64,000 bases of DNA from an uncultured Spirochaetota bacterium (GCA_963745745.1 CAVUYS010000017.1:17734-81733), one strand, 5' to 3'; positions 15,469 to 52,421 are shown, counted from the stretch's first letter. The notes: generated from the letters alone by a model not told the origin. Made by a program: numbers and translations.

Positions 15469-15549
15469 CGAACATCCTCCTTCGGTACTGACAATATAGG
15501 ACCCCTCGCTGCCCGTGTCAAAGAGACGATCCGTGTGCCCAGCGCGTTC

Positions 15550-15578
15550 TTGACCCGTGCCGGGCGCGAAAGTATGAT
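15550..15578 (+). promoter_or_regulatory. Candidate sigma70 promoter TTGACC-17-TATGAT immediately upstream of mttB paralog 1 (would give a near-leaderless transcript)
   Basis: Read directly: ttgacc cgtgccgggcgcgaaag tatgat; ATG at 15588. Confidence 0.35.
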
Positions 15579-15587
15579 CGGAGGCCG

Positions 15588-18139: not shown

Positions 18140-18157
18140 GCCGCGGGCCCACTGGAG

Positions 18158-19561: not shown

Positions 19562-19587
19562 AACCGGCCGGCCGTTCTCAGCCAGCG

Positions 19588-19628
19588 GCATCCGGCGGTT
19601 TGACATCCGCCGGATGCATATATATACT
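19588..19628 (+). promoter_or_regulatory. Perfect 11-bp-stem hairpin (gcatccggcgg-tttgacat-ccgccggatgc) whose loop carries a TTGACA -35; TATACT -10 lies 17 nt downstream. Terminator/operator overlapping the promoter of the amino-acid ABC operon
   Basis: Read directly. AT-rich island between mttB paralog 2 and the ABC permease. Confidence 0.4.
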
Positions 19629-20504: not shown

Positions 20505-20508
20505 GAAC

Positions 20509-21262
<754 letters not shown>

Positions 21263-33179: not shown

Positions 33180-33948
33180 ATGCCGGTCCTATCTTCGGTC
33201 TCCAAAGCCCTGACCCTCCTGGACGCCTTCACCGCCGAGAAGCCGGAGCTCACCCTCACCGAGCTGGCCCGCCAGGCCGGGGCCCACAAGTCCTCCGCCT
33301 TCCGCCTGTTGAGCCACCCTGGAAGCCCACGGCTTCGTGGAGAAGAGCCCCTCCGGAAGGGGCTACCGCCTGGGCTGGAAGCCCCTGGAGCTTTCCGGCC
33401 GCCTGCTGGGCCGCTACGAGCTGCGCGAGCTGGCCGCCCCCCACATGGAGGAGCTGGCCCAGAAGAGCGGGGAGATCGTGCACCTGTCCATCCTGGACGG
33501 GGCGGAAATCGTGTACCTGGACAAGCGCGGGCGCAGCCAGCCGCTGACCGTCTCCACGACCGTCGGCGGGCGCAGCCCGGCCCACGCCTCGGCCATGGGC
33601 AAGGTGCTGCTGGCCGGCCTGCCGCCCGCGGAAGTGCTGCGCCTGCTGGGCGGCCGGCCCCTGAGGCGCTTCACCCCCACCACCATCACGGACCGGCGCC
33701 GCCTGGGCCGCGAGCTGGAAGCCATCCGGCGCCAGGGCTTCGCCCTGGACAACGAGGAAGCCTTCCCCGGCATCCGCTGCGTGGCCGCCCCCCTGCGCGG
33801 GCGCGCAGGGCGGGTGCTGGCCGCCCTGAGCCTGACCGTGCCCGCCCAGCGCATGGGCGCGCGCCGGCAGGCCGAGCTGAAAGACTGGGTCACGGACACC
33901 GCCGCCCGGATTTCCGACCGGATCCGGGCGGGCGGAATCGACGCATAG
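33180..33948 (+). CDS. IclR-family transcriptional regulator; frameshift near 33318
   Basis: HTH part MPVLSSVSKALTLLDAFTAEKPELTLTELARQAGAHKSSAFRLL, then (other frame) ..LEAHGFVEKSPSGRGYRLGWKPLEL.. and the IclR effector domain (..GIRCVAAPL..). Confidence 0.75.
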
Positions 33949-33969
33949 ACGAGCCAAAGGAGAAACGAA

Positions 33970-34608
33970 TGTCGGTACAGGAACTGCAGCAGGCAGTGGA
34001 GGCCGGGGACAAGGACCGCGCCACGGCGCTGGCCCGGGACCTGCTGGGCAAGGGCACGGACGGCCCTGAAGATCATCGAGTCCCTCACCCAGCTGATGAG
34101 CGTGGTCGGCGAGAAGTTCTCCCGCCTGGAGATCTTCCTGCCGGAGATGATGATGGCCGGCGCGGCCATGTCCGCGGTGGTGGAGCTGCTGGGCCCGCAG
34201 CTGAAAGCCAGCAAACAGGGCCAGCCCAAGGGCAGGATCGTGCTGGGCACCGTGATGGGCGACCTGCACGAGATCGGCAAGAACATCGTCAAGCTGATGC
34301 TGGAGACCCAGTTCTTCGAGGTGAAGGACCTGGGGGTCAACGTGGACGCGGTCGTCTTCATCAAGGAGGCCGAGGCCATGGGCGCCAACCTGATCGGCGC
34401 CTCCTCCCTGATGACCACCACCATGCCCCACCAGAAGGAGATCGTGAACCTCCTGAAAGACAAGGGGCTGCGCGCCAAGTACAAGGTCGTGGTCGGCGGG
34501 GCGCCCGTGAACCAGAAATGGGCCGAGGAGATCGGCGCGGACCTGTACAGCCCGGACGCGGGAACCGCCCCGCGGATGATCGGCGAGCTGCTGAAGGAGA
34601 AAGCATAA
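33970..34608 (+). CDS. Corrinoid (B12)-binding methyltransferase partner protein (B12-binding_2 cap + B12-binding Rossmann domain); frameshift near 34060
   Basis: MSVQELQQAVEAGDKDRATALARDLL (cap), then ..RIVLGTVMGDLHEIGKNIV.. (DxHxxG B12 motif), ..GASSLMTTTM.., ..KVVVGGAP.. Confidence 0.75.
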   Translation, partial: CRYRNCSRQWRPGTRTAPRRWPGTCWARARTALKIIESLTQLMSVVGEKFSRLEIFLPEMMMAGAAMSAVVELLGPQLKASKQGQPKGRIVLGTVMGDLHEIGKNIVKLMLETQFFEVKDLGVNVDAVVFIKEAEAMGANLIGASSLMTTTMPHQKEIVNLLKDKGLRAKYKVVVGGAPVNQKWAEEIGADLYSPDAGTAPRMIGELLKEKA

Positions 34609-35990
34609 TGTCCAGTCCATATCGCTTGTGGGAGATCCAGGAACGCTCCAACACCGGTCCGTTCTGCGAGGAGAACGACTTCCTGCCCAAGCTCTTCACC
34701 CCGAAGCTGAAGGAAGTCATCAAGAAGTACCAGATCAAGTACGACCCGAAAAACCCCGTCCCCTCGGACGACGCGCTGGCCGACCGGGTGTGGCAGGCCG
34801 GCTGGGAGCTGTACCGCGAGGTGGGGCTGTACAACACCGACACCCACCGCATCATCAAGGTCAGCGACCAGGAAATCAAGGAAGCCCTGTACATGCACCC
34901 GGGCCAGTACTGGGTGGGGGCGGGCAAGGACGCCGTGCTGTGGAAGCACCGCCAGGTGGAGGACCGCAAGACCCCCTTCGCCCTGTTCAGCCCGGACTGC
35001 ACCTGCTCCGAGGAGCTGCACTACTCCATGTGCCTGGCCTACCTGAAAGAGCCGCTGCTGGACGGGTTCTGCGCCCCGATCCTGGAGGAATCCATGGGGC
35101 AGAAGATCGCCTCCGCCTCCCCCTTCGAGATCAACGGCTGCACGCAGCACATCTACAACCTGCGCCTGGCGGCCAAGCAGGTCGGGCGGCCGGGGACCTT
35201 CTTCGTGGCCGTGGGCACCGCCGAGCACGACAGCGGGCAGATCGCCGTTTCCAACAACGAGTGGGGCGTGCGCACGACGGACGCCAGGATCATCGGCACC
35301 CTGACCGAGTTCAAGACCGCCAACACCCTGCTCAACCGCGTGGTGCACTGCGCCCAGTACGGCTGCTACGCCGGCAACCTCACCGGGGCCATCTACGGCG
35401 GCTGGTGCGGAGGCTCGGAAGGGGTGGCCGTGGCCACCGTGGCCTACTCCCTGAACGGCCTGCTGGCCTACGGGGCGATCTTCAACCAGCACTTCCCCTT
35501 CCACCTGAACTGGGGCTCCAACACCACCCGCGAGCTGCTGTGGCCCATCGCCGTGGCCGGCCAGGCCCTGTCGCGCAACTCCAAGCTGCTGTACACCTCC
35601 AACGGCTTCTCCAACGCCGGGCCCATGACCGAGATGGTGTTCTACGAGACCGCCTGCCACGCCCTGGTGAGCGTGGTGAGCGGCTGGGACCTGTGGGAGA
35701 TGGCCTCGGCGCGCAACAAGCACCGCAACCGGGCCACCCCGCTGGAGGCCCGCCTGGGCATGGAGGTCGGGCACGCCGTGGCCCGCCAGGGCATGACCCG
35801 GGCCCAGGCCAACGAGATCGCCAACCGCATCCTGGCCAAGTACGAGCAGCGGGCCGCGGACGCGCCGATCGGCAGCCGAGTACCAGGACTGCTACCACGT
35901 GGCCACGGCCCTGCCCACCCAGGAGCACCTGGACATGTACCGCCGGGTCAAGGACGAGCTGGCCGGCATGGGGATCCAGTTCCCCTACTG
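34609..35990 (+). CDS. Monomethylamine-methyltransferase (MtmB)-like protein, non-pyrrolysine homolog; frameshift near 35877
   Basis: ..GLYNTDTHRIIKVSDQEI.. (cf. MtmB GIYCTDTHRIVKYTEDEI) and ..HLNWGSNTTRELLWPIAVAG.. (cf. WGSTNTRETLMIAG). The region aligning to the Pyl site of MtmB reads GRPGTFFVAVGTAEHDSGQ with no in-frame TAG. The C-terminal 40 aa are in a shifted frame and end ..GMGIQFPY*. Confidence 0.7.
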
Positions 35991-36002
35991 ACGGGAAGCG
36001 CC

Positions 36003-37890
36003 ATGAGCCGGCTGTTGAGCGGAAACCAGGCCATCGCCTACGCCGCCCTGGAGGAGGGCGTGGCCCTGGTCACCGGTTACCCCGGCACGCCTTCCACGGA
36101 GGCCCTGACCGAGATCGAGCACCTGGCCCGCCGGGGCGAGCCCGCCCCGTACGTGGAGTGGAGCGTGAACGAGAAGGTGGCCTTCGAGCTGGGCGCCGGG
36201 GCCGCCTGGGCCGGCCAGCGCGCGCTGGTGACCATGAAGATGTCGGGGGCCAACGTGGCCCTCGACGCCTTGATCGGGGTGGCCCACTCCGGGGTGAACG
36301 GCGGCCTGGTGGTGTACGTGGCCGACGACCCGGGGGTCGAGGCGGGGATGCCCGAGCAGGACTCCCGCCTGCTGGCCCAGCTCTGCGGGCTGCCTCTGCT
36401 GGATCCCGCGGACCCGGCGTCGGCCTACCGCCTCACCCGCTACGCCTTCGGCCTCTCGGAGCGCACCGGGCTGCCCGTGCTCCTGCGCTCCGTGACCTCG
36501 GTGGCCCACGCCCGCTCTCCCGTGGACTCCACCCGGCGCTGGCGGCCGCTGGACCGTCCGGCCTCCTTCAGCCGCGACATCAGCCGCTACACCAAGGCCG
36601 GTTCGGCCATCTGCCTCGCGCAGCACCGGGAAAACCTGGCCCGCCTGGCGATGGCGGAAGAGGCCTTCCGCTCCGACGGGATCAACGTCTTGTCGCCGGG
36701 CGGCCCCTCGGACGGCGACCGGATCGGGGTGATCGGCGCGGGGGCGGTGATCGCCGGCCTGGCCGAGGCCCTGGAGGAGCGGGAGGCCGCCGGGCAGACG
36801 GTGCCGGCCGGCCTGTTCCTGGAGGGGGTCCTGCCGCTGGAGGAGGGCAAGGTGCGCGAGCTGCTGGCCTCCTGCGGCAGCCTGACCGTGTTCGAGGAGC
36901 TGGAGCCCGTGGTGGAGCGCGAGGTGCGCGGCCTGGCCACGCGCCTGGGCTGGCAGGGGCGCATCCTGGGCAAGATGGACGGCGTGCTCCCGCGCGTGGG
37001 GCGCTACACGCGGCGCGAGATCCTGGCCGGGCTGGCGGCGCTGGATGGCAAGGCCACCACCGCCACCACCGCGGCAACGCCGGAAGCCCCGCCGGTGAAG
37101 CACCCCATCACCTTCTGCGCCGGCTGCCCGCACCGCGGCACCTACCTGGCCCTGAACCGGGCCCTGAAGGCCCTGAAGCTGCCCAAGGAAGAGGTCGTGG
37201 TCACCGGGGACATCGGCTGCACGATCCTGGGCATGAACGCCCCCTTCAGCTCCTGCTGGACGGAGCTGGCCATGGGCTCCAGCCTGGGCCTGGCCCAGGG
37301 CTTCCAGCGGGCCGGCCTGAAGGGGCCGCTGGTGGCCACCATCGGGGACTCCACCTTCTTCCACGCCGGCCTGCCGGCGCTGGTGAACGCGGTGCAGCAC
37401 GACACCCCCCTGGTGCTGGTCATCCTGGACAACGGCTGGACCAGCATGACCGGCTTCCAGGCCAACCCCGGCACGGCCCCCGCGCTGCAGGCCGCCGGCA
37501 GCCGCCGGGTCTCGATCGAGGCCGTGGTGCGGGCCATGGGCGTGGACTTCCTGGAGCGGATGGATCCCTTCGACCAGCCGGCGGCCATCGAGGTGATGAA
37601 GCGGGCCCTCGCGGCCGAAGGGGTGCGGGTGGTGCTGGCCGAGCGGGAATGCGCCCTCACCGTGGCGCGCCGCGAGCCGGAAAGGGAGCTGTACCGCATC
37701 GATGCGGGAAAATGCACCTTCTGCCGGGCCTGCCTGCGCGAGACCGGCTGCCCGGCCCTGAACATGACCCGCAGCGGGCCAGGGCGATGCGGGCAAGGAG
37801 CACATGGCCATCGACGAGGAGCTTTGCACCGGCTGCGGCCTGTGCGCGACCTGCTGCAAGTTCGACGCCATCCACGAGGTGGGGGCATGA
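36003..37890 (+). CDS. iorA: Indolepyruvate:ferredoxin oxidoreductase alpha subunit (TPP- and 2x[4Fe-4S]-containing); frameshift near 37780
   Basis: MSRLLSGNQAIAYAALEEGVALVTGYPGTPSTE N-terminus typical of IorA; TPP region GDIGCTILG..GDSTFFH; CTFCRACLRETGCPA and (other frame) ..IDEELCTGCGLCATCCKFDAIHEVGA* ferredoxin motifs. Confidence 0.8.
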
Positions 37891-38474
37891 ACATCCTGAT
37901 CACCGGGGTCGGCGGGCAGGGCACGGTCACCCTGGGGGACCTGATCGCCGAGCGGGCCGCGGACCTGGGGCTGCCGGTCTCGGTGTTCCACTCCCGCGGC
38001 ATGGCCCACCGCGGCGGCCGCGTGGCCGGGGAGATCCGCATCGCCTCCCGGCCCGGCCAGCGCCTGGCCGCCCGCCTGTCCCCCGGCGGGGCGGACGTGC
38101 TGGTCGGCATGGAAGTCGGGGAGACGATCAACTCCCTGCCCTTCCTGCGCGAGGGAGGGGTGGCTTTGCTGATCGACTACCGTTACGTGCCCTCCGAGTC
38201 GGCGCTCAAGAAGGAGGCCTACCCGGATCTGCAGAAGGCGGTCGAGCTGTTCTCGCGCCGCACCCCGCGCGTCTTCGCCGTGGTGCGCCCGCCGGCGCCC
38301 GTGAACCTGTTCGCCCTGGGCTGCCTGAGCGCGGCGCTGCCGGAGGAAATGGACCCCCAGGGGATCTTCGACCCGCAGGGGCTGGAGGAAACCATCCGCG
38401 GTTTCCTGAAAAAGAACACGGCAGCGAACCTCGAAGTCTTCCGCCGGGGACGCCAGCATGCCAGCCGGGGTTAA
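37887..38474 (+). CDS. iorB: Indolepyruvate:ferredoxin oxidoreductase beta subunit
   Basis: ATGA overlap with iorA; MNILITGVGGQGTVTLGDLIAERA... 196 aa, typical IorB. Confidence 0.8.
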   Translation: MNILITGVGGQGTVTLGDLIAERAADLGLPVSVFHSRGMAHRGGRVAGEIRIASRPGQRLAARLSPGGADVLVGMEVGETINSLPFLREGGVALLIDYRYVPSESALKKEAYPDLQKAVELFSRRTPRVFAVVRPPAPVNLFALGCLSAALPEEMDPQGIFDPQGLEETIRGFLKKNTAANLEVFRRGRQHASRG

Positions 38475-42534: not shown

Positions 42535-42852
42535 CTACTTGAAGTGGGCCAGCGACAGCTCGGTGCGCCCGATGAGGATGGTATCGGTCAGGGTCAGCCG
42601 CAGGTAGCTGCGCGGCGGCACCCGCTGCCCGTTGACCTGGGTGCCGTTGGTGCTGCCCAGGTCCTCCAGGAAGTACTCCTCCCCGATCTTCTGGATCACG
42701 GCGTGCCGGCGGGAGGCCAGCTTGTCCTCCAGGACGATGTCGTTGGCCTTGTCCCGCCCCAGGCGGATCTTGCCCACCAGCGGCACCCTCCGGCCCTGGA
42801 AGACGATGTAGGTGGTGCCGGCGCTGCGCATCTGGGACAGTCGCTTGCCCAC
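42535..42852 (-). CDS. FHA-domain protein (small, stand-alone)
   Basis: ..TYIVFQGRRVPLVGKIRLGRDKANDIVLEDKLASRRHAVIQKIGEEYFLEDLGSTNGTQVNGQRV.. canonical FHA. The listed start is GTG; the frame is open upstream to about 42920 where an ATG+AGGAGG lies one base out of frame. Confidence 0.7.
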   Translation of the reverse strand: MGKRLSQMRSAGTTYIVFQGRRVPLVGKIRLGRDKANDIVLEDKLASRRHAVIQKIGEEYFLEDLGSTNGTQVNGQRVPPRSYLRLTLTDTILIGRTELSLAHFK

Positions 42853-42955
42853 GTTGCTGTCGTAGAAGATGGTCTGGTTCGGGTCGTCGGGTTCCCGCTT
42901 CAGGGCAGTCCTCCTGGCCCCATTGTAGCCCCCCCGGGCTTTAGCGCAACCGGAG

Positions 42956-44521
42956 TCAGGGCGCGGTCCGGCGGTACACCAGCTGGTCGGACAGCACCAC
43001 CTGCTCCCCCTCCAGGTGCTCCAGGCCCTGGTCCAGCAGCACCGAGCCGCGGCTGACCGCCAGCTCCAGCAGGGCGCCCCGGAAACGGACGATGGCCTGC
43101 AGGAGATCGCGCTGCGACTCGGCGAGCTCCTCCTCGGCCTCGTAGACCCGGTGCATGTCGCTGGTCCCGGCCTCCAGGCGGGCCAGCTCCACCTCCAGCA
43201 GCCGCCGCTTCACGGCCGCCACCCGGCGCAGGCTCTCGATGCGGGCCCGCAGCGTGCCGACCCGCCCGAGCAGGGCCTCGATGCTGCGGCACATCTCGTA
43301 CTCCAGGGCCTCCAGGCGCACCTCCGCCAGCCTCTTCTTCAGCCGGGCCGCCTCCAGCTCGTTGCGCTCCCGGATGCCCAGCAGGAAAGGGGCCCGCATC
43401 TCCAGCCCGAGGGACCAGGTGGGAAAGCGCCCGCCCTCCAGCTTCCCCAGGGACTCTTCCGCCGTTTCGCCCAGACCCCGCAGGCCGTAGCTGCCCTTCA
43501 GGACCAGGTCCGGCAGGGCCTGGCTTTTGCGGTATCCCAGCAGCACGGCCTCCAGCCGCAGCTGTTCCCGGCGCATCATGTAGTCGGGCTGGGCGCGCCG
43601 CGCCCACTGGAGGGAGGAGGCCCGTTCGGCCTCCAGGTCGGCGGCCCCCGGAGCATCCGGCACCAGGGGGTCGGCGGCCACGATCCGCAGGTCCTCTGCG
43701 AGCCGCGCCCCGGCCATCAACAGCTTGAGCTGGGTCACCGCCTCCCGGACGGCCTGCCCCGCGTCGGCCCGCCGGGCCTGCCGGAGGGCCAGCTCGGCCT
43801 CCGCCTGCTGGAGGTCCAGCTCCGACATCTTTCCGCCCTGGACCCAGGCCGCGGCGTCGCGGGCCAGGTTGGCGGCAATCTGCAGGGAATCCTCTTCCAT
43901 GGCCAGGGCGGCCTGGGCCAAGGCGAGATTCCAGTAGGCCTGTTCCGCCTTCAGCAGCGTGTCCATCAGCTGCCGGCGGTACTCGTGGAAGGCGATATAG
44001 CGCTCCTGGCGGGCGGCGCGCAGCGGGGCCAGGGACGCCCCGTGGGTCAGCCCCTTCAACAGCGGCTGCTCCCCGGAAACGCCCACGAAGGACTCGAACT
44101 CCCCCTCATCGGCGTAGGAGTTCTCCATCCTCGTCACCGACCCGCCGAGGCGATAGGTTCCCCCGCCCGGCAGCTTGCCCTCCAGGCCCAGGCCGTATTC
44201 GTCGTTGGTCTCGAAGAACTCCAGGGCGCCCAGTTGCAGGACCTGCTGCAGGGAGGTATTCTCCCGCGTCAAAGAGTCCCGGCGGAAGTGGCCGGCCAGG
44301 GCCGGCTCGAAGGAGCCCCACTCGGAACGGGCCAGGCGGTAGCGGATCAGCCACTGCAGATACGCCTCGTCCACCGCCGGCTGGACCCGCACCGCCTCCC
44401 GCAGGAATTCCGCCAGGGTGAGGTTCAGCAGCGGGGCGTTTTCCTGTGCCGGGAGAAGCGCCGCCAGGCTCAGGCAAACGGCCAGCAGCAGGGTTCGAAC
44501 CATGGAAGTCGATGAATGCAT
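42956..44521 (-). CDS. TolC-family outer-membrane channel protein
   Basis: Signal peptide MHSSTSMVRTLLLAVCLSLAALLPAQE, two TolC repeats with coiled coils, about 520 aa. The extended ORF to 44641 overlaps the divergent hlyD start, so the start is placed at 44521. Confidence 0.8.
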   Translation of the reverse strand: MHSSTSMVRTLLLAVCLSLAALLPAQENAPLLNLTLAEFLREAVRVQPAVDEAYLQWLIRYRLARSEWGSFEPALAGHFRRDSLTRENTSLQQVLQLGALEFFETNDEYGLGLEGKLPGGGTYRLGGSVTRMENSYADEGEFESFVGVSGEQPLLKGLTHGASLAPLRAARQERYIAFHEYRRQLMDTLLKAEQAYWNLALAQAALAMEEDSLQIAANLARDAAAWVQGGKMSELDLQQAEAELALRQARRADAGQAVREAVTQLKLLMAGARLAEDLRIVAADPLVPDAPGAADLEAERASSLQWARRAQPDYMMRREQLRLEAVLLGYRKSQALPDLVLKGSYGLRGLGETAEESLGKLEGGRFPTWSLGLEMRAPFLLGIRERNELEAARLKKRLAEVRLEALEYEMCRSIEALLGRVGTLRARIESLRRVAAVKRRLLEVELARLEAGTSDMHRVYEAEEELAESQRDLLQAIVRFRGALLELAVSRGSVLLDQGLEHLEGEQVVLSDQLVYRRTAP

Positions 44522-44612
44522 GGCTGTGGCCATTATAGGGAAATTTCCACGGATGAAAAGCGATTGCATTCCCGAGCGGCCCGGTCTACAGTAGCGCAAC
44601 GATGAGGAAAGC

Positions 44613-45428
44613 ATGAGAGTCCGGCGACGAATCTCCGCCATTTTCTGCTTCCAGCTTCTGCTCCTTTCCGCCGCCTGGGGTCAGGGCCTGGCCCCGAGGG
44701 GGATCACCGAGCCCTGCCGGGACGCCACTTTGAGCGCCACGGTGGCCGGGACCCTGGCGGTCATCCACAAGAAGGAGGGGGAGCCGGTCCGCGCGGGGGA
44801 GGTGATCCTGGAACTGGAGAGGGACCTGGAGAGCATCGAGGTGGAACGGCGCCTGCTGATCGCGGAGAGCAAGGTGGAGCTGGAGGCGGCCCGCCGGCGG
44901 GCGGAACAGCTTGGCCTGGAGCTTCAGGCCACCCGCCGGCTGTACGACTCCACGGGGTCGGTGTCCCGGGAGCAGCTGCAGCAGAAGGAGCTGGAGGCCT
45001 CGCTGGCCGAAGCGGAGCTGGAGCGCCTGGCGATCGCCGAAAAGAGGGAAATGCTGGAGCTGCGCATCGCCGAGGCCCAGCTGCGGCAGCGCTCGATCGC
45101 CTCGCCGTTCGACGGGGTGATCGCCCAGATCATCCCCGAAATCGGGGAGGCCTGCCACCCGCAGCAGCCCCTGGTCCGCGTCGTGGACACCTCCCGCTGC
45201 CGGCTCATCGTCCATCTGGAAGCGGCTGCGGCGCTCCAGTTGGCGGCGGGAAAGCCGGCCCAACTCCGGTTCGACGGGATCCGCCCCCCCAACCTCGTGC
45301 GCGGCGTCGTGGAGCTGGTGTCGCCCGTAGTGGACCCGGCCAGCGGCCTGGTGCAAATCAAGGTGCTGTTCGACAACCCGGAGGGGCGGATCCGCCCCGG
45401 GTTGAGCGGCACCTTGCTCTTGAAGTGA
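44613..45428 (+). CDS. HlyD/membrane-fusion-protein family periplasmic adaptor (short form)
   Basis: Signal/anchor MRVRRRISAIFCFQLLLLSAAWG, biotin-lipoyl hairpin ..TVAGTLAVIHKKEGEPVRAGEVILELE.., coiled coil, beta-barrel ..IASPFDGVIAQI.. Confidence 0.8.
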   Translation: MRVRRRISAIFCFQLLLLSAAWGQGLAPRGITEPCRDATLSATVAGTLAVIHKKEGEPVRAGEVILELERDLESIEVERRLLIAESKVELEAARRRAEQLGLELQATRRLYDSTGSVSREQLQQKELEASLAEAELERLAIAEKREMLELRIAEAQLRQRSIASPFDGVIAQIIPEIGEACHPQQPLVRVVDTSRCRLIVHLEAAAALQLAAGKPAQLRFDGIRPPNLVRGVVELVSPVVDPASGLVQIKVLFDNPEGRIRPGLSGTLLLK

Positions 45429-47296
45429 AAGGTCAGGACGACGTGAAGGCGGATGCCGGGCAGCGGCCGGCGGAACAAGCAGGCTACCTGCAGGCCCTGG
45501 AAGGCCTGCAGAAGCTCCGCTCCTTCGAGGGCGAGCCTGCCCGCTTCTGGCCCCTGTACGCGCATCACCTGGTGATCGCCGCCGGGGCGGCCAGCGGGCT
45601 GATCGCCGTTCGGGAGGAAAGGCCGCAGCCGCACTGGAGGCCTCTGGCGCTGTCCCCCGCCAACCTGAAGGCGGGAGGCGTCTCCGAGGCCATGCTGGCG
45701 GGAGCCGAGGAGCGCCTGCAGGATTGCCTGCGAGAGGGGGCCGCCCGCTGGGAGCAGGCGGGCAACCAGCTGGCCGCGGTGCGCCTGCAGACGGGCGCCG
45801 GTCAGGAGGTCTGCCTGGCGGTGCTCCTGCTGGAAGCCGGCGATCCCTGCCCGCAGCAGGAGGTCCTGCGCCGCCTCGCCCTGGCTGCCGACATCCCGGC
45901 CGCCTACCAGCTCCTGCGCGTGGCCGCGGAATCCAGGACCCGGGTGGAGCAGCTGGCCAGCGTGCTGGACCTGATGGTCCTGCTCAACGCGGAAAAGAAC
46001 CTGCTGCCGGCGGCCATGCGCCTCTGCAACGAGCTGTGCTCCCGCCACCGCTGCGAGCGGGTGAGCCTGGGCTGGCTGGAAGGGGGCTACGTCCGCCTGC
46101 AGGCCATCAGCCACACCGACCAGTTCGACCGCAAGACCGAGGCCGTGCAGCTCCTGGAGGCGGCCATGGAGGAGGCCCTGGACCAGAACGCGGAGATCCT
46201 CTGGCCGCGGAACGACGACGGCGGCACGGTCCGCCGCGACCACCGCAACTTCGCCCGCGGCCAGGACGTCGCCCACCTGTGCTCCCTGCCGCTGCGGGTG
46301 GACGAGCAGGCCGTGGGCGTGCTGACCTGCGAGCGGGCCGCCAGTCCTTTCGCGGAAACGGAGCTGCGCCTCCTGCGCCTGTCCTGCGACCAGGCCGCCC
46401 GGCGCCTGGCGGACCTGAAGCGCAGCGACCGCTGGCTGGGGGCGCGCCTGGCCGCGGAAGCCAGGGAGGCCCTCGGCCGCCTGCTGGGCTTCGAGCACAC
46501 CTGGTTGAAGCTCCTGGCCCTGCTGGCGGCCGCCGGCCTGGGCTTCCTGTTCCTCGGCCGGGTCCCCTACCGGGTCAAGGCCCCGGTCGCCTTGAGGACG
46601 GACGACGTGGCCTACGTCACCGCCCCCTTCGACGGCCACCTCGAGCAGGTGCGCTTCCGGGTAGGCGATGCCGTGCAACAGGGCCAGGAGCTGCTGAGCC
46701 TGGACCGGACCAGCCTGCTCCTGCGGGAGGCGGAGCTGATCGCCGAGCAGAACCGCTACCTGGGCGAGCTGGAGAAGGCCCGGGCTTACGCCGCCACCGC
46801 CGACATGCGCATCACCCAGGCCATGTACGACCAGGCCTTCGCCCGGCACGAGCTGGTGCGCTACCAGCTGGCCCAGGCGGTGGTCCGCTCCCCGCTGTCC
46901 GGGGTGGTCATCGAGGGGGACCTGGCCGAGCGCCTCGGCACGCCCGTGCAGCAGGGCGACCTGTTGTTCAAGCTGGCGCGCATCGAGCGGCTGTACGCGG
47001 AAGTCGAGGTGAAGGAAGCCGACGTGCAGGAGCTCGCGGAGGGAATGGCAGGCAGGATCAGCCTGGCCAGCCGGCCTCAGGAGAGCTGGCCGATCCGCGT
47101 CCTGCGGGTGGAGCCGGCGGCCGTGGCCCGGGAGAAGGGCAACGCCTTCGTCGTGCGCTGCCTCCTGGAGGGCAGCCCGCAATCCTGGTGGCGCCCCGGG
47201 ATGACGGGCATGGCCCGGCTGGAAGCCGGCCGGCGCAAGCCGGTCTGGGTGCTGACCCACCGGACGGTGGATTTCCTGCGCCTGCGGCTCTGGTAG
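45425..47296 (+). CDS. Bitopic protein: about 370-aa cytoplasmic N-terminal domain (tentatively GAF-like, two Cys-containing subdomains) - TM helix - periplasmic HlyD-like adaptor domain
   Basis: GTGA start overlap; TM WLKLLALLAAAGLGFLFLG; HlyD blocks ..VTAPFDGHLEQVRFRVGDAVQQGQELLSLD.., coiled coil, ..VRSPLSGVVIEGDLAERLGTPVQQGDLLFKL.. Confidence 0.65.
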   Translation: MKGQDDVKADAGQRPAEQAGYLQALEGLQKLRSFEGEPARFWPLYAHHLVIAAGAASGLIAVREERPQPHWRPLALSPANLKAGGVSEAMLAGAEERLQDCLREGAARWEQAGNQLAAVRLQTGAGQEVCLAVLLLEAGDPCPQQEVLRRLALAADIPAAYQLLRVAAESRTRVEQLASVLDLMVLLNAEKNLLPAAMRLCNELCSRHRCERVSLGWLEGGYVRLQAISHTDQFDRKTEAVQLLEAAMEEALDQNAEILWPRNDDGGTVRRDHRNFARGQDVAHLCSLPLRVDEQAVGVLTCERAASPFAETELRLLRLSCDQAARRLADLKRSDRWLGARLAAEAREALGRLLGFEHTWLKLLALLAAAGLGFLFLGRVPYRVKAPVALRTDDVAYVTAPFDGHLEQVRFRVGDAVQQGQELLSLDRTSLLLREAELIAEQNRYLGELEKARAYAATADMRITQAMYDQAFARHELVRYQLAQAVVRSPLSGVVIEGDLAERLGTPVQQGDLLFKLARIERLYAEVEVKEADVQELAEGMAGRISLASRPQESWPIRVLRVEPAAVAREKGNAFVVRCLLEGSPQSWWRPGMTGMARLEAGRRKPVWVLTHRTVDFLRLRLW

Positions 47297-47306
47297 CGGG
47301 GACGGG

Positions 47307-49457
47307 ATGCTCGAAGAACGCAAGGTCTTCCACGAATCCTGGTATCGCATCGCCGGACAGCGCATCGCCCTGCGCTCCAGCGTCAAGGTGCGCCGCCAGA
47401 TGTACCGCGGCTCCCGCTGGTACCTGCTGCACGACCCTTTCAGCAACCAGTTCTACCGCCTGGCTCCGCCGGCCTACGCCTTCGTGGCCCGCTTAGGCCT
47501 GGAGCGGACCCTGGAAGAGGTCTGGCAGGAGAGCATGGCCCAGGACGCGGAGAACGCCCCCGGGCAGGAGGAGGTCATCCACCTCCTGGCCCAGCTCTAC
47601 CATGCCAACCTGCTGCACTACGAGCTGCCCGCGGACAGCCAGAAGCTGTTCGAGCGCTTCCGCGAGCGCAGGCAGAGGACCCGGCAGGCCACTGTTATGA
47701 ACATCATGTTCATCCGCCTGCCCCTTTTTGATCCGGACCGCCTGCTGCAACGCCTGCAGCCGGTGGCCCGCCTGCTGTTCAGCCCCCTGGGCCTGCTGGC
47801 CTGGGGCGCCGTGCTGGCGGGCGCCCTCAAGGTGGCCATCGAGAACTTCCCCGCATTGCGGGTGCAGAGCCAGGGCATCCTGGCCTTGCCCAACCTGCCC
47901 CTGATGTACCTGGCCCTCGTGCTGATCAAGGCCCTGCACGAGCTGGGCCACGCCCTGGCCGTACGCCGCTTCGGCGGGGAGGTGCACACCCTGGGGGTCA
48001 TGTTCCTGATCTTCAGCCCGCTGCCGTACATGGACGCCACCGCGGCCTGGGCCTTCCGCAGCAAATGGCGCCGGGTACTGGTGGGAGCCGCCGGGATGAT
48101 CGCCGAGTTGTTCGCGGCGGGCGTGGCCGTTTTCATCTGGGCCTCCACCGGACCGGGGATCCTGCACTCGCTGGCCTACAACACGATCTTCGTGGCCTCC
48201 CTTTCCACCATCCTGTTCAACCTCAATCCCCTGCTGCGCTTCGACGGCTACTACATCCTCTCCGACCTCCTGGACATCCCCAACCTGCACGCCCAGGCCG
48301 GCCGGCAGCTGCGCCACCTGGTGGAGCGCTTCGCCTTCGGCGTGCGCCAATCCCGCGGTCCGGCGGGCACCCGCAGCGAAGCGTTCTGGCTCTCGGTCTT
48401 CGGGGCCTTGAGCGGCGCCTACAAGCTGGTGGTGTTCTCCACCATCCTGCTGGTGGTGGCCGACCGCTTCCTGCTGGCGGGGGTGATCATGGCCGCGGTT
48501 TGCGCGGTGGCCTGGGTGCCGGCGCCCCTGGTGCGCCTGGGGCGCTACCTGGCGGGAAGCCCGCGCCTGGAGCGCGTCCGCTTGAGGGCCGCGGGGGTCT
48601 GCCTGGGCGCGCTGGCCCTGCTCTTCGGCCTGCTGTGCTTCCTGCCCTTCCCCAACGGCTTCAAGGCGCCGGGAGTCCTGGAGGCCGCCGAGCACATCGT
48701 GGTGGCCAACGGCGTGCCCGGAACCATCGAGCGGATCCTGGCCAGCCCGGGAAGCCGGGTCCGGAAGGGCGATGCGCTGGTCGCCTTGCGCAACGGGGAG
48801 CTGGCCTTCCGCATCCAGGAGGTGCAGGCCAGCCTGCGGCAGGTGCAGGCCACGCGCCAGAAGGCCCTGCTGTCCAGCCGGGCGGACCTGCGCTCCATCG
48901 ACAGCCTGGAGTCCACCTTCCTGCAGCAGTTGGACCGCCTGCGGCAGGACGAGCAGCGGTTGGTGCTCCGCGCCGAGATCGGCGGGCGCTGGTCGGCCCC
49001 GCAGCTCAAGGACTTGCGGGGCATGTGGATCCGCCGCGGCACGCCGCTGGGCCAACTGCTGGACGACCGGGCTTTCGTTTTCACCTCCGTGGTCTCCCAA
49101 CAGGAGGTCTCCCGGCTGTTTTCCGATGCCATCCGCTCCTCCCAGGTCCGCCTGGCCGGCCAGGCGGGGGTGGACCTGGAAGTGCTCTCGATGACCCGCA
49201 TTCCCGCGGAGCTGACCCGCCTGCCTTCGATCTCCCTGGGTTTCGCCGGCGGCGGGGAGGTGGCCGTGAACGTCCGGGAATCCAGCGGCGCGATCGCCGC
49301 CGAGCCTTTTTACGAAGTGAGGATGGAAGTGGCCGGCGGGGCGGCCCTGTATCACGGCCGCTCCGGTCGCGTGCGCTTCCGGCTGGAGCCGGAGCCTCTC
49401 CTGCGGCAGGGCTACCGCCGCCTGCGCCAGCTGCTGCAGCGGCGCTACCAGTTGTAG
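47307..49457 (+). CDS. Peptidase-M50 (site-2-protease-like) polytopic membrane metalloprotease fused to a C-terminal periplasmic HlyD-like adaptor domain, with about 130-aa N-terminal cytoplasmic domain
   Basis: HExxH inside TM (ALHELGHALAV) and M50 second motif NLNPLLRFDGYYIL. C-terminal lipoyl-like hairpin ..GTIERILASPGSRVRKGDALVAL.., long coiled coil, ..YHGRSGRVRFRL.. barrel. Confidence 0.65.
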   Translation: MLEERKVFHESWYRIAGQRIALRSSVKVRRQMYRGSRWYLLHDPFSNQFYRLAPPAYAFVARLGLERTLEEVWQESMAQDAENAPGQEEVIHLLAQLYHANLLHYELPADSQKLFERFRERRQRTRQATVMNIMFIRLPLFDPDRLLQRLQPVARLLFSPLGLLAWGAVLAGALKVAIENFPALRVQSQGILALPNLPLMYLALVLIKALHELGHALAVRRFGGEVHTLGVMFLIFSPLPYMDATAAWAFRSKWRRVLVGAAGMIAELFAAGVAVFIWASTGPGILHSLAYNTIFVASLSTILFNLNPLLRFDGYYILSDLLDIPNLHAQAGRQLRHLVERFAFGVRQSRGPAGTRSEAFWLSVFGALSGAYKLVVFSTILLVVADRFLLAGVIMAAVCAVAWVPAPLVRLGRYLAGSPRLERVRLRAAGVCLGALALLFGLLCFLPFPNGFKAPGVLEAAEHIVVANGVPGTIERILASPGSRVRKGDALVALRNGELAFRIQEVQASLRQVQATRQKALLSSRADLRSIDSLESTFLQQLDRLRQDEQRLVLRAEIGGRWSAPQLKDLRGMWIRRGTPLGQLLDDRAFVFTSVVSQQEVSRLFSDAIRSSQVRLAGQAGVDLEVLSMTRIPAELTRLPSISLGFAGGGEVAVNVRESSGAIAAEPFYEVRMEVAGGAALYHGRSGRVRFRLEPEPLLRQGYRRLRQLLQRRYQL

Positions 49458-49460
49458 GCC

Positions 49461-51446
49461 ATGAGCTTTCTGTCCCGCGACTACCTGCGCACGGACATCC
49501 GGCAGCCGCCGGAGCTGTACCGCGGCCTGGACGCCTGGCTGTTCTCGCTGGTGAACTGGGTGAACCAGGGCCCCGGACCGGTCGGCGAGCATCTGGCCCG
49601 CGCCCGCCTGGTCGACGAGCGGGCGGCGGCCTGGAAGGACCTGAGGGAGAGGACCCTGAGCGCCCGCCTGCTGGAGTTCCGGCAGGCCTTCCGGCGCCGC
49701 CGGCAGGCGGAGGAGCTGCTCCTCGACGCGCTGGCGGCCATCCGCGAGGCGGCCTTCCGCCACCTGGGCCTGCGCCCCTACCCCGTCCAGCTGGCCGGCG
49801 CCCTGGCCCTGCACCGCGGCTGCCTGGCGGAGATGTCCACGGGGGAAGGCAAGACCCTCACCGCGGCCATGACGGGCATCCTTCACGGCTGGACCGGGCT
49901 GCCCTGCCATATCATCACGGTGAACGACTACCTGGCCGGGCGCGACGCGCGTTGGATGCAGCCGCTGTACCGCTTCTGCTGGGTGTCCGCCGGCAGCGTG
50001 ACCTCGGAGATGGGCCCGGCGGAGCGGCGCGAAGGCTACCGCCGGGAGGTGACCTACACCACCAACAAGGAGATCGTGGCCGACTTCCTGCGGGACCGCC
50101 TCTGGCTGGGCGGCCTGCAGGACAGCGGCCGCAGGCAGATCGCCAGTCTGCTGGGCCGCAACCAGCTGATCGAGCAGGGGATGGTCATGCGCGGCATCCA
50201 CGCCGCCATCGTGGACGAGGCCGACAGCATCCTGATCGACGAGGCGGTCACTCCGCTGATCATTTCCCGCGCCTCGCCCAACGCGGTGTTCAGCGAGGCC
50301 TGCCTGCTGGCCCACGAGCTGGCCCGCGGCCTGGAGCGGGACCGCGACTACGCGGTGAATCAAAAACGCCAGGAGATCGAGCTGCACCCCGATCTGGAAC
50401 GACGCCTGGCCGAGCGGATCCGCGGCTCGGGAGCCCGCTACCGGGGCTTGAGCGGCTACCTGGAGCTGGTGCACCAGGCCTTGAGCGCCAGGGAGTTCTT
50501 CCACCGCGACAAGCAGTACGTTCTATCAGAAGGCAAGGTGGTCATCGTGGACGAGTTCACCGGGCGCCAGATGCCGCAGAGGACCTGGCGAGCCGGCCTG
50601 CACCAGTTCATCGAGGCCCGGGAGGGGTTGGCTCTGACCCCGCCTTCGGAAACCCTGGCCCGCCTGAGCTTCCAGCGCTTCTACCGCTTCTTCCGGCGCC
50701 TGTCGGGGATGACCGGAACGGCCCGCGAGGCCCTCCAGGAGTTCTGGGACATCTACCGCCTGCCCACGGTCAGGATCCCGGAAAACCGTCCCTGCCGCCG
50801 GCAGCATCTGCCCACCCTGGCTTTCGCCGACTCCGAATCCAAGTGGCGGGCGCTGGTGGAGGAGATCCGGGGCGTCCACGCCCAGGGCAGGCCGGTGCTG
50901 GTGGGCACGCGGAACGTGCGGGCCAGCGAGAAGCTCTCCGCCCGCCTGACCGGCTTGCGGCTGGAGCACCGGGTGCTCAACGCCGTCCGCCATCAGGAGG
51001 AGGCCCTGATCGTGGCCGGCGCGGGCAGCCGGGGGGCCGTCACTATCGCCACCAACATGGCCGGCAGGGGCACGGACATCCGCCTGGGCGAGGGCGTGGC
51101 CGGGCTGGGGGGGCTGCACGTCATCGCCTCGGAATGCCACGAGTCCCAGCGCATCGACCGGCAGCTCTTCGGCCGCTCCGCCCGCCAGGGCGACCCGGGA
51201 AGCGCCCGCCTGTTCGTGAGCCTGGAGGATGAGATTCCCGGCCGCCACCTTCCGGAAGCGCTGCGGCGCCTGCTTCGCCTGGAGCTGCAGCGCCGCTTTC
51301 CGGCGGCCGGGCTGCAGGCGGCGGCGGCCGTCCGCCTGGCCCAGCTTTCCGCCCAGCGGCAGGCCTACCGACGCCGCCGGGCCGTGCTCGAAATGGACAA
51401 CTGGCTGGAGGATTCGCTCTCCTTCGGCCAGCGGGAGATCAACTGA
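49461..51446 (+). CDS. SecA-like ATPase comprising only the motor core (NBD1 - preprotein-crosslinking region - NBD2); lacks helical-scaffold/wing/C-terminal domains of canonical SecA (661 aa vs about 900)
   Basis: EMSTGEGKTLTAAM (Walker A), HIITVNDYLAGRDARWMQPLYRF, IVDEADSILIDEAVTPLIIS (Walker B / DEAD), GRPVLVGTRNV...VTIATNMAGRGTDIRLG...LHVIASECHESQRIDRQLFGRSARQGDPGSARLFVSLED. Ends about 60 aa into the helical scaffold. Confidence 0.8.
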   Translation: MSFLSRDYLRTDIRQPPELYRGLDAWLFSLVNWVNQGPGPVGEHLARARLVDERAAAWKDLRERTLSARLLEFRQAFRRRRQAEELLLDALAAIREAAFRHLGLRPYPVQLAGALALHRGCLAEMSTGEGKTLTAAMTGILHGWTGLPCHIITVNDYLAGRDARWMQPLYRFCWVSAGSVTSEMGPAERREGYRREVTYTTNKEIVADFLRDRLWLGGLQDSGRRQIASLLGRNQLIEQGMVMRGIHAAIVDEADSILIDEAVTPLIISRASPNAVFSEACLLAHELARGLERDRDYAVNQKRQEIELHPDLERRLAERIRGSGARYRGLSGYLELVHQALSAREFFHRDKQYVLSEGKVVIVDEFTGRQMPQRTWRAGLHQFIEAREGLALTPPSETLARLSFQRFYRFFRRLSGMTGTAREALQEFWDIYRLPTVRIPENRPCRRQHLPTLAFADSESKWRALVEEIRGVHAQGRPVLVGTRNVRASEKLSARLTGLRLEHRVLNAVRHQEEALIVAGAGSRGAVTIATNMAGRGTDIRLGEGVAGLGGLHVIASECHESQRIDRQLFGRSARQGDPGSARLFVSLEDEIPGRHLPEALRRLLRLELQRRFPAAGLQAAAAVRLAQLSAQRQAYRRRRAVLEMDNWLEDSLSFGQREIN

Positions 51447-51465
51447 TGCAAGGGGGAACACCACG

Positions 51466-52053
51466 ATGAAAGCGCAAGCCCGCATCCTGCTGGCAATCCT
51501 GACCCTGACGATCTGCCTTCCCGCTGCCGCCCAGGAAGCGGAATCCAAGGAGCCCTGGCTCTTCGTAGGGCCGCGCGCCGGCGTCACCTGGGCGATGACC
51601 AGCGCCAGCCGCTTCGACCAGGAGCTGCAGACGCTGTATCCCAGCGGGCGCTCCTACTTCCCCCTGTACAGCCAGCTGGGGCTGAGCCTGTCCCAGCACC
51701 TCCGCCTGCGCCCGAGCGGTTACCGGCTGATGATCCAGGAAGGGGCGCTGCTGTCCGGACTGGACCAGAACTACGCGCTGCCCACCCTGAACCTGCTGGT
51801 CGGCCTGCACTTCGCCCTCGGGGTGGAGGCCAGCCTGGGTCCGGAGCTCACCTTCCCGCCCAACGGCGGAGTGCAGGCGGCCCTGGTCTACGCCGTGGGC
51901 TGGAGATTCTCCCTGAAGGCGGCCTCCGTGCCGGTGCTCCTGGTGTTCAGCCCGCTTCCGGAGGACCGGCTGGCGCGGCTCACCCTGCTCTCCGGCGTCG
52001 ACTTCGAGCTCCTGCCGAAGATCCAGAGGAAAAAGACGCCTTTCAACTACTGA
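51466..52053 (+). CDS. Small outer-membrane beta-barrel-like protein (signal peptide, alternating amphipathic strands, C-terminal ...F-N-Y)
   Basis: MKAQARILLAILTLTICLPAAAQEA signal peptide; 195 aa; last gene of the operon. Confidence 0.5.
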   Translation: MKAQARILLAILTLTICLPAAAQEAESKEPWLFVGPRAGVTWAMTSASRFDQELQTLYPSGRSYFPLYSQLGLSLSQHLRLRPSGYRLMIQEGALLSGLDQNYALPTLNLLVGLHFALGVEASLGPELTFPPNGGVQAALVYAVGWRFSLKAASVPVLLVFSPLPEDRLARLTLLSGVDFELLPKIQRKKTPFNY

Positions 52054-52070
52054 CGGCCGGTACGACCGGG

Positions 52071-52421
52071 CTAGTTTCCGCTGGGACTGCCGGGACCGCG
52101 CTTCTTCTCCATCATCTCCACCTGGCTCATCAGCCAGTAGGCCAGGGCCTTGGCCTGCCCCGGGCTCATGATCACCCCCACCTGGGACTGGCGCGTGAAC
52201 GGGGAGTCCTTCGGGCTGCGCTCGATCTCCGGCCCGATCCCGTCCGGGGTGAGGGAGTGCACCGACTCCTCCGGAACTTCCAGGTACTCGATGAAGAGAT
52301 CGAACTTGACGTCCCCCCGGGGGGTGGCGCCTCCAAGCGCGCCGTTGGCGAAGACGATCCGGTACTCCGGGTGCTTCTCGTAGCGGTACACGATCCTCTT
52401 GCGGGCAAACCCTTCTTCCAT
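52071..52421 (-). CDS. Small cytoplasmic protein, DUF3467-like
   Basis: MEEGFARKRIVYRYEKHPEYRIVFANGALGG...VGVIMSPGQAKALAYWLMSQVEMMEKK; about 116 aa, between the giant adhesin gene and the operon end. Confidence 0.45.
   Translation of the reverse strand: MEEGFARKRIVYRYEKHPEYRIVFANGALGGATPRGDVKFDLFIEYLEVPEESVHSLTPDGIGPEIERSPKDSPFTRQSQVGVIMSPGQAKALAYWLMSQVEMMEKKRGPGSPSGN

Follow-up and report, generated by a model that had tools for sequence, protein, structure and literature searches.

The window analysed here is a 64,000-nucleotide stretch of DNA from an uncultured Spirochaetota bacterium (GCA_963745745.1, CAVUYS010000017.1:17734-81733). Its second half carries a cassette of five core genes, which encode a TolC-family outer-membrane efflux protein (OEP), a membrane fusion protein (MFP) of the HlyD type termed MFP1, a second MFP fused to a GAF domain (GAF-MFP), a third fused to a predicted leader-peptide recognition element (RRE) and a peptidase of family M50 (M50-MFP), and a shortened SecA paralogue (short SecA; Table 1). 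The initial annotation of this DNA, made from the sequence alone, had listed a TolC protein, three HlyD-type adaptors (one GAF-fused, one M50-fused) and a SecA ATPase reduced to its motor domains, and Pfam and NCBIfam searches recovered all of them at or near the positions it gave. The plus-strand genes, described there as overlapping or lying 3-20 nt apart, indeed form a tightly coupled operon with a 4-nt overlap followed by gaps of 10, 3 and 19 nt, and the adjacent giant gene with repeats-in-toxin (RTX) sequences is real. The window was also said to encode no ATP-binding cassette (ABC) exporter and no resistance-nodulation-division (RND) pump. By motif scan and domain search, no exporter-type ABC and no RND pump was detected in the 64 kb; the ABC genes are limited to Opp/Dpp-type importer genes at ~10-15.5 kb and an open reading frame (ORF) combining ABC_tran with PAS/HisKA at ~30-32 kb.

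The window is ~70% G+C, and mechanical ORF lists are therefore crowded with shadow ORFs. The real genes were picked out by domain searches against Pfam and NCBIfam (release 20). The five core genes of the window align full-length with homologues in tblastn searches, and none of the five proteins passes a specific-family model of NCBIfam release 20. The OEP has a signal peptide starting at about residue 37-47 (segment 47-65), placing its likely true start at ~44503-44533, and it scores 68.6 bits with TIGR01844 against a cutoff of 225.15. The N-terminus of MFP1, MRVRRRISAIFCFQLLLLSAAWG, is a signal peptide; the protein passes TIGR01730 RND_mfp (121.5 bits, cutoff 94.9) and is also matched by HlyD_D23 and HlyD_3. 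With TIGR01843 type_I_hlyD, the MFPs of the window reach 18.7-31.7 bits against a cutoff of 208.65 and none passes. GAF-MFP is laid out as a cytoplasmic N-terminus of ~355 aa that includes the GAF domain (197-328), a single transmembrane (TM) helix (360-378) and a periplasmic MFP part; its residues 1-192 have no Pfam match, and the GAF domain recurs in 28 of 31 homologues.

Conservation of the cassette

Relatives were collected by scanning one genome per species with an M50-MFP alignment and keeping the best 80 loci. M50-MFP relatives are present in at least 592 species genomes, and the cassette occurs in Spirochaetota, Verrucomicrobiota, Lentisphaerota, Kiritimatiellia, Planctomycetota, Desulfobacterota, Nitrospirota, Fibrobacterota, Chlorobiota, Elusimicrobiota, Margulisiibacteriota and Pseudomonadota. 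The same genes at near-equal lengths (OEP, an MFP of ~260 residues, GAF-MFP of ~620, M50-MFP of 718 and short SecA of ~662) recur in five neighbourhoods that belong to different phyla, the OEP being absent from the Margulisiibacteriota locus L003 only. Synteny was counted by tblastn of the window proteins against 85 loci. Short SecA lies directly 3' of M50-MFP in 62 of 66 informative loci, and GAF-MFP directly 5' of it in 64 of 70. MFP1 was found in 46 of 54 loci, and an OEP homologue in 44 of 54 with at least 5 kb of upstream sequence. All five core genes occur together in 38 of 48 loci, indicating that the gene set is a conserved unit; the arrangement is far beyond chance.

All ORFs of at least 70 aa from 86 loci, the window included, were then clustered all against all. 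The five core families and their antisense shadows were the only ones found in more than a handful of loci. In this unbiased clustering no ABC or RND partner family emerged among the conserved neighbours within 10 kb. A motif scan based on a Walker A/LSGGQ/Walker B regular expression, which may miss divergent ABCs, gave ABC-like ORFs in 2 of the 86 loci, neither of them adjacent to the cassette; the clustering is the stronger argument.

Three M50-MFP loci (L016, L048 and L057) have no adjacent short SecA; metabolic or unassigned genes come after M50-MFP there, among them edd and zwf (Entner-Doudoroff/pentose-phosphate) in L057. Their short SecA may be encoded elsewhere in the genome, as a 2015 paper noted for some genomes (PMC4452313).

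A short SecA with intact ATPase motifs

Short SecA keeps NBD1, PPXD and NBD2, and of the scaffold helix the first half; wing domain, IRA1/two-helix finger and C-terminal tail are missing. Its alignment to Bacillus subtilis SecA is limited to residues 26-604, the C-terminal third being absent. TIGR00963, the model for canonical SecA, matches over positions 6-618 of 787 with 564.7 bits against a cutoff of 800, and all SecA2 models in NCBIfam score the protein below their own cutoffs. No variation is seen in Walker A (MSTGEGKT), DEAD, motif VI or the arginine finger across 33 homologues. The family also has conserved termini of its own, MSxLTxDYRRT at the N-terminus and VLRMDTWLDDSLSF at the C-terminus. 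The exact sequence of the window's own short SecA had no record in the collection searched. When 5.8 billion proteins were searched, over 100 clusters came back with a length of 661-663 aa and 55-95% identity, the named sources being Spirochaetes, Verrucomicrobia, Kiritimatiellae, Latescibacterota, Gemmatimonadetes, Margulisiibacteriota, Methylomirabilota and Deltaproteobacteria.

These data bear on the suspicion that the SecA-like ORF is a truncated or frameshifted canonical secA brought next to the other genes by chance. Frameshift-type assembly errors do occur elsewhere in the window. However, a length held constant in more than 100 clusters, family-specific motifs at both ends, the nearly invariant place directly after M50-MFP and a published phylogeny (PMC4452313) in which these proteins are separate from the canonical SecA that their own genomes encode together rule out a broken gene, the probability of which we regard as negligible. 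The view taken initially, that this is not a damaged canonical secA, agrees with a family of fixed size with intact ATPase motifs.

Public annotation of the family is uneven. NCBI and the Prokaryotic Genome Annotation Pipeline (PGAP) call some short SecAs "prepilin peptidase", a misnomer (22198-24114 in L171, Methylosinus sp. C49; P0047, P0074 and P0119), and others "hypothetical protein" or "preprotein translocase subunit SecA".

A predicted leader-recognition domain fused to the M50 peptidase

M50-MFP contains HELGH at residues 211-215 and NLNPLLRFDG at 305-314; H211, E212, H215, N305, N307, P308, D313 and G314 are invariant in 80 M50-MFP sequences. Peptidase_M50 (PF02163) scores 27.6 bits on the window protein against a cutoff of 27.2, and matches 21 of 21 homologues. 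The protein thus has the motifs of the M50 (site-2 protease) family and is predicted to be a protease. No PDZ domain was detected in it.

The region ahead of the peptidase is matched by the PqqD family of Pfam in 17 of 21 homologues (best E 2.4e-5). For residues 23-403 the best NCBIfam match is the daptide protease NF041824 (165.9 bits, E 1.4e-48, model positions 4-361 of 379), below its cutoff of 300, and the second match of the RRE-M50 region is the YydH/LiaK epipeptide protease NF058609 (E 9e-8). An AlphaFold2 (AF2) model of residues 1-140 alone (predicted local distance difference test score, pLDDT, of 78) has strands at 27-33, 36-43 and 48-52 and helices at 54-61, 69-79 and 87-99. Its top fold match in the Protein Data Bank (PDB) is the lasso-peptide RRE TbiB1, solved with a leader peptide (Foldseek probability 0.99, target-normalised TM-score 0.71). 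Profiles and model together indicate that the N-terminus of M50-MFP is a PqqD-like RRE, an assignment that is new here, and the domain is predicted to bind a leader peptide.

The full-length AF2 model (pLDDT 83.7) has a three-strand plus three-helix N-terminal unit (10-105), then a long helix and the M50 bundle, in which ~7 TM helices are accompanied by a membrane-reentrant hairpin, and finally a C-terminal MFP (447-716) that matches MacA/MexA/AcrA at E ~1e-13 by Foldseek. The odd number of TM helices predicts a cytoplasmic location for the RRE and the HExxH site and a periplasmic one for the MFP. Foldseek with the full-length model and a profile search of the PDB returned MFP structures only, and the M50 and RRE parts therefore have no solved relative detectable by sequence. 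An exhaustive HMMER search for M50-MFP yielded 4,296 cluster representatives at 50% identity with E<=1e-30, of which the top 150 are nearly all ~715 aa long.

Giant LEPR-XLL proteins as candidate substrates

In many loci a giant ORF lies directly after short SecA. These giants share an N-terminal motif, basic-x-x-F-x-L-E-x-L-E-P-R-V-L-L-S-A-D, and 8 of 8 tested N-termini of cassette-adjacent giants pass the curated cutoff of NCBIfam NF012209, "LEPR-XLL domain-containing protein". Such proteins are often ~8,000 aa long and are common in Verrucomicrobiota, Planctomycetota and many Proteobacteria. We sought LEPR-XLL ORFs in all six frames of the loci by a regular expression and a hidden Markov model (HMM) scan, in which true scores stood cleanly apart from noise (at least 28 against at most 9 bits). 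An LEPR-XLL ORF was present near the cassette in 18 loci, the motif always lying at most 55 residues after the preceding stop codon. In 14 of the 59 loci with usable downstream DNA, the LEPR gene begins 150-1,200 nt 3' of short SecA on the same strand; four more loci have one within 10 kb, three upstream and divergent and one 4.5 kb downstream.

The association was also examined in the reverse direction. Metagenome contigs were scanned with the motif alone, as an alignment of six sequences, giving 80 loci; the small query biases this set towards ExLEPR[VI][LM]LS variants. Short SecA was the commonest non-self neighbour family of LEPR-XLL genes (12 of 80 loci, or ~9 of the 46 with at least 2.3 kb of upstream sequence), usually ending 150-350 nt before the motif, and M50-MFP, MFP1 and GAF-MFP were the next commonest. 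ABC-like ORFs were found in 2 of these 80 loci.

Cultured isolates give the same picture. On plasmid pMSC49a of Methylosinus sp. C49, one operon on a single strand encodes an LEPR-XLL protein of 8,847 aa (N-terminus FDTLEPRVLLNAD, 29.8 bits), a DUF3467 protein, GAF-MFP, RRE-M50-MFP (annotated there as "PqqD family protein"), short SecA, MFP1 and TolC. On a plasmid of Rhodobacteraceae bacterium M382, GAF-MFP, M50 and SecA come after two giant ORFs, one of which (3,472 aa) PGAP names as an LEPR-XLL protein. The link between LEPR-XLL proteins and the cassette thus agrees with independent annotation. The reciprocal genomic association suggests that LEPR-XLL giant proteins are a substrate class of the cassette, a proposal that is new here; the literature we found mentions LEPR-XLL in passing only. 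The initial suggestion that the machinery might export the neighbouring adhesin gains strong comparative support from this link.

Tandem LEPR-XLL or giant genes stand beside one cassette in L024 (~14283-15100 and 15295-21203) and in L169 (1453-11871 and an origin-spanning ORF, 3-11945 in L168), which suggests several substrates per machine. A LamG protein beside the L001 cassette has no LEPR motif at its called N-terminus.

The giant gene of the window

The window's own giant gene continues in open frame to the window end, so that the N-terminus lies beyond position 64000. The encoded protein ends in RTX repeats and a tail of ~60 aa. The frame breaks near 54.4 kb and 57.45 kb, with an in-frame stop near 56.75 kb; contig L086, 94% identical, carries the same gene as one uninterrupted frame of at least 2,431 aa. 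Because other genes of the window also look frame-shifted, assembly indel errors are a likelier cause of these breaks than a pseudogene.

The sole long homologue with genomic context is P0243, which matches 98% of a 733-aa query at 49% identity and lies in contig L087, 3' of the cassette and on the same strand. The gene region that holds P0243 starts with ERFNLEPLESRLLLSANG, scoring 21.7 bits for LEPR-8K (cutoff 17). Through this homologue, the sequence data support the inference that the giant protein of the window, too, would carry an LEPR-XLL N-terminus.

A sister variant without SecA

More distant M50-HlyD proteins, with ~29-31% identity over the RRE/M50 part, are encoded in Azospirillum (L173/L174, Azospirillum brasilense p2, NZ_CP032347.1) and on IncF-type plasmids of Escherichia coli (L175/L176, NZ_CP104683.1) and Citrobacter. 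The E. coli variant is present in 24 of 5,426 complete genomes, mostly on plasmids. These sister loci comprise genes for a giant Ig-like protein (3,383-4,457 aa), TolC, an MFP of ~260-290 aa, an HlyD protein of ~450 aa without GAF domain and an M50-HlyD protein of ~710-730 aa; no SecA paralogue is present in the Azospirillum, E. coli and Citrobacter plasmid contexts. The N-termini of the sister giants have a divergent LEPR-like motif: that of Azospirillum, MALEPRFMFDAAG, reaches 14.9 bits, just below cutoff, and that of E. coli, RFALESRQLFDGAA, has no NF012209 match.

As the sister loci keep the giant gene and M50-HlyD in the absence of SecA, the link to giant proteins follows M50-MFP. In these two lineages short SecA and the GAF domain are missing together, suggesting that they could be a jointly added module, and the SecA paralogue is possibly neither the only nor a required source of energy. 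The E. coli plasmid variant offers an experimental handle on what is possibly a simpler relative.

Relation to known systems

The initial annotation did not recognise this gene combination as a described one. It had in fact been described: by bioinformatics, Kamneva, Poudel and Ward (PLoS One 2015, PMC4452313) defined "secondary SecA_DEAD domain proteins" without a wing-scaffold domain, co-encoded with Peptidase_M50 (+HlyD), GAF+HlyD, HlyD/biotin-lipoyl and sometimes OEP proteins and with no ABC transporter. They proposed the SecA-like protein as the ATPase and the M50 TM domain as the pore, stated that the biological role was completely unknown, and noted that in Methylobacterium extorquens only the GAF gene appeared expressed in exponential phase. 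Strain AM1 of this species (META1p2399-2402) is a culturable carrier of the cassette. The window has both defining features, namely a SecA_DEAD protein minus the wing/scaffold domain and the set of M50/HlyD, GAF/HlyD, HlyD and OEP genes without an ABC gene. It is therefore a member of this locus type, one that adds a previously unlisted clade and carries an additional accessory gene. The 2015 paper, in contrast to the present analysis, named no substrate, RRE domain, LEPR-XLL link or SecA-less variant, and we found no later paper taking up such a locus in the literature searched. Ordinary annotation does not explain the locus.

Among established machineries, type I secretion (HlyB-HlyD-TolC, or LapBCE for LapA) is similar in its one-step MFP and TolC conduit and in the giant, repeat-rich and often RTX substrates encoded beside it, and an MFP with a cytoplasmic N-terminal extension could likewise sense substrate. 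The cassette differs in having no HlyB-type ABC exporter, its sole ATPase being the SecA paralogue, and in having three MFPs, two of them fused to other modules. Its candidate signal is N-terminal and probably cleaved, whereas the type I signal is C-terminal and uncleaved. Generic MFP and OEP domains are present in the window proteins, which do not reach the cutoffs of the type I models TIGR01843 and TIGR01844. Peptidase-containing ABC transporters (PCATs) that work with an MFP and TolC, the colicin V/microcin exporters, unite leader recognition, cleavage and export in one machine, as is proposed for the cassette. They use a cytoplasmic C39 cysteine protease and an ABC motor on peptides, whereas the cassette has an intramembrane M50 peptidase with RRE, a SecA-like motor and candidate substrates of thousands of residues.

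Accessory SecA2 of Gram-positives and mycobacteria is likewise a second, specialised SecA; its dedicated substrates are frequently large glycoproteins or adhesins of the cell surface. However, SecA2 keeps the helical scaffold and IRA1 and works with SecY or SecY2, whereas short SecA stops halfway along the scaffold helix, occurs in diderms and is coupled to MFP/TolC rather than to a SecY paralogue. Short SecA shares with canonical SecA and SecA2 the DEAD-like motor with PPXD, and has neither their full-length architecture (HSD, HWD, IRA1) nor a score at the level of their models. Finally, the M50 leader peptidases of ribosomally synthesised and post-translationally modified peptide (RiPP) pathways (NF041824 and NF058609) are homologous to M50-MFP over the whole RRE and M50 region, including HExxH, NxxPxxxxDG and the PqqD-like domain. 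M50-MFP differs from them in its fusion to a periplasmic MFP, the lack of RiPP-modifying enzymes nearby, scores below the equivalog cutoffs and giant candidate substrates.

A model for leader-dependent export, and its alternatives

Our preferred reading, held with a little better than even confidence, is that the locus encodes a leader-dependent, protease-coupled, SecA-like-driven and TolC-dependent exporter of giant LEPR-XLL surface proteins. We infer this from the domain content, the catalytic motifs, the five-gene synteny without ABC or RND partner, the predicted topology, the RRE-like fold and the reciprocal association with LEPR-XLL genes. In the model, the cytoplasmic RRE of M50-MFP would bind the LEPR-XLL leader. 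Short SecA, which has an ATPase core and a preprotein clamp and no SecY-engaging elements, could grip the unfolded giant chain and feed it, N-terminus first, into a platform made of the M50 TM bundle and the TM anchor of GAF-MFP. The M50 active site, predicted near the cytoplasmic face, would remove the leader, and the MFP domains of MFP1, GAF-MFP and M50-MFP would form a periplasmic tunnel docking on the TolC-family channel. The GAF region may couple engagement of substrate or SecA, or a small-molecule signal, to assembly, by analogy with the cytoplasmic N-terminus of HlyD in type I systems. Stoichiometry, direction of transport and leader cleavage, like each of these steps and the "protease-gated" export named in the initial annotation, are predictions of the model. 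A bolder proposal, to which we give slightly less than even chances, is that the cassette represents a distinct and widespread double-membrane secretion type unlike in principle the type I to type XI systems (T1SS-T11SS), with an LEPR-XLL leader read by an RRE and cut by an M50 peptidase, and a SecY-independent SecA that would push the chain, N-terminus leading, along a heteromeric three-MFP tunnel to TolC.

Several observations count against this model. Short SecA is without the two-helix finger, which in canonical SecA is thought to drive or gate translocation, and the existence of the SecA-less variant means that the SecA paralogue is not indispensable to the architecture and that the energy source may differ. 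The Foldseek E-value of the RRE match to TbiB1 is weak (0.12). An adjacent LEPR gene is found at only ~1/4 of cassettes, and an adjacent cassette at only ~1/5 of LEPR genes. As for the window itself, the N-terminus of the giant protein lies outside it and there is no LEPR motif anywhere within it; the link is provided by one homologue in an error-prone contig, L087. In addition, the RTX repeats and tail of the giant protein resemble those of classical type I substrates, which exit C-terminus first.

This last point leads to the main rival of the exporter model, in which the giants leave the cell by classical type I secretion, through an ABC exporter encoded elsewhere and a C-terminal RTX signal, and the cassette is a processing or release device acting on the N-terminal LEPR-XLL segment. 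It could do so by GAF-signalled anchoring, trimming or release, comparable to the action of LapG/LapD on LapA, or as a quality-control device extracting stalled substrates. The RTX end of the window's giant protein fits such a scheme, as does a giant LEPR-XLL protein of Vibrio described as having RTX and serralysin domains at its C-terminus (PMC10868602). A role in regulation is suggested by the GAF domain, and the SecA-less variants show that the architecture can do without the ATPase. However, an ABC exporter is not conserved near cassettes or near LEPR genes, the cassette's own TolC and three MFPs make up a full conduit that trimming would not need, and the RRE and M50 site, predicted to be cytoplasmic, would meet the N-terminus before export. 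The PPXD clamp and the ATPase motifs are, moreover, strictly conserved. We consider a processing or release device unlikely. The readings as a peptide exporter, as a signalling device or as an efflux pump fit the data less well still. If the cassette exported and matured a small RiPP-like leader peptide, the giants being neighbours for other reasons, one would understand why the RRE-M50 part has its nearest curated relatives among RiPP leader peptidases and why its RRE has a fold typical of RiPP pathways. Yet no modifying enzyme or other gene is conserved beside the cassette among the clustered ORFs of at least 70 aa, a size limit that a tiny precursor could escape. The scores stay under the equivalog cutoffs (166 against 300), a SecA-type preprotein motor would be needless for a short peptide, and the reciprocal LEPR-XLL association offers a specific alternative substrate, all of which makes this reading quite improbable.

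M50 proteases are classically signalling enzymes (RseP, SpoIVFB). Together with the GAF domain, this raises the thought of a GAF-controlled, S2P-like regulated intramembrane proteolysis, with the MFPs and TolC as an envelope scaffold or a small-molecule efflux pump; that the GAF gene alone seemed to be expressed in exponentially growing M. extorquens (PMC4452313) would also fit. However, no anti-sigma factor, sigma factor or other regulator is conserved nearby, the PDZ domain is missing, and the scheme leaves a SecA motor with PPXD, three MFPs and the LEPR-XLL link unexplained. We hold it to be highly improbable.

If the exporter model is right, giant surface proteins of a large class with wide phylogenetic spread would be exported by a dedicated route outside the textbook schemes. 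The SecA motor would then be separable from SecY and could be plugged into a TolC-type tripartite conduit, and leader recognition by an RRE, known from peptide natural products, would serve protein secretion. The substrate link, the RRE domain and the culturable and plasmid-borne examples make a system that has gone unexamined since the single comparative paper of 2015 directly testable.

Accessory genes and other features of the window

The initial annotation had further counted the FHA gene and the small protein gene at the two ends of the cassette as parts of the system. The FHA protein does not hold this place, as it has a homologue near the cassette in just one other locus (L045), and a weak one by tblastn; it is a neighbour rather than a conserved part and may be a local regulatory add-on. 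The small protein keeps it within one clade. Its gene lies directly after short SecA in seven Spirochaete-type loci only (L001, L006, L008, L009, L086, L087 and the window), which makes it a clade-specific accessory. The secreted protein has no Pfam or NCBIfam match. Its alternating hydrophobic segments and its end, ...TPFNY, are compatible with a small outer-membrane beta-barrel, for which it is a possible candidate.

Table 1 Positions of the cassette genes and their immediate neighbours in the window
Feature	Position	Strand	Remarks
FHA protein, 105 aa	42535-42852	-	Stand-alone domain; Pfam FHA E 7.6e-22
TolC-family OEP, 561-aa ORF	42956-44641	-	Divergent from operon; Pfam OEP E 4e-30, two stretches
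MFP1, 271 aa	44613-45428	+	TIGR01730 RND_mfp 121.5 bits; signal peptide
GAF-MFP, 623 aa	45425-47296	+	Pfam GAF 5.3e-08, HlyD_D23 4.9e-19
RRE-M50-MFP, 716 aa	47307-49457	+	Peptidase_M50, PqqD-like N-terminus, C-terminal MFP
Short SecA, 661 aa	49461-51446	+	SecA_DEAD 7.8e-90, SecA_PP_bind 1.4e-22, P-loop_SecA 4.3e-52
Small secreted protein, 195 aa	51466 (true start)-52053	+	Signal peptide
116-aa protein	52071-52421	-	Directly 3' of giant gene, convergent on operon
Giant RTX-repeat gene, >3,800 codons	52426 to beyond 64000	-	Convergent on operon; HemolysinCabind E 1.9e-32, 1.8e-13

The 116-aa protein is conserved in L086 (6564-6914, 97%) and L001 (12669-13004, 73%), and may be an accessory or a substrate chaperone. 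An assignment to DUF3467 was rejected, the match being sub-threshold (E 0.0032, 17.9 bits, cutoff 25) and BLASTP giving no similarity to the bona fide DUF3467 neighbour of Methylosinus. That genuine DUF3467 gene lies between the giant gene and the cassette, and similar small genes are found just 5' of GAF-MFP in L071, L073 and L082.

Elsewhere in the window, a single plus-strand ORF of 1,764 aa (33180-38474) joins an IclR-type helix-turn-helix (HTH), an MtmB-like methyltransferase and three 2-oxoacid:ferredoxin oxidoreductase domains, set apart by out-of-frame-looking stretches, and another (30032-31906, plus strand) fuses ABC_tran with PAS/HisKA/HATPase. Both suggest frameshift errors or stop-poor overlapping frames in an assembly of 70% G+C.

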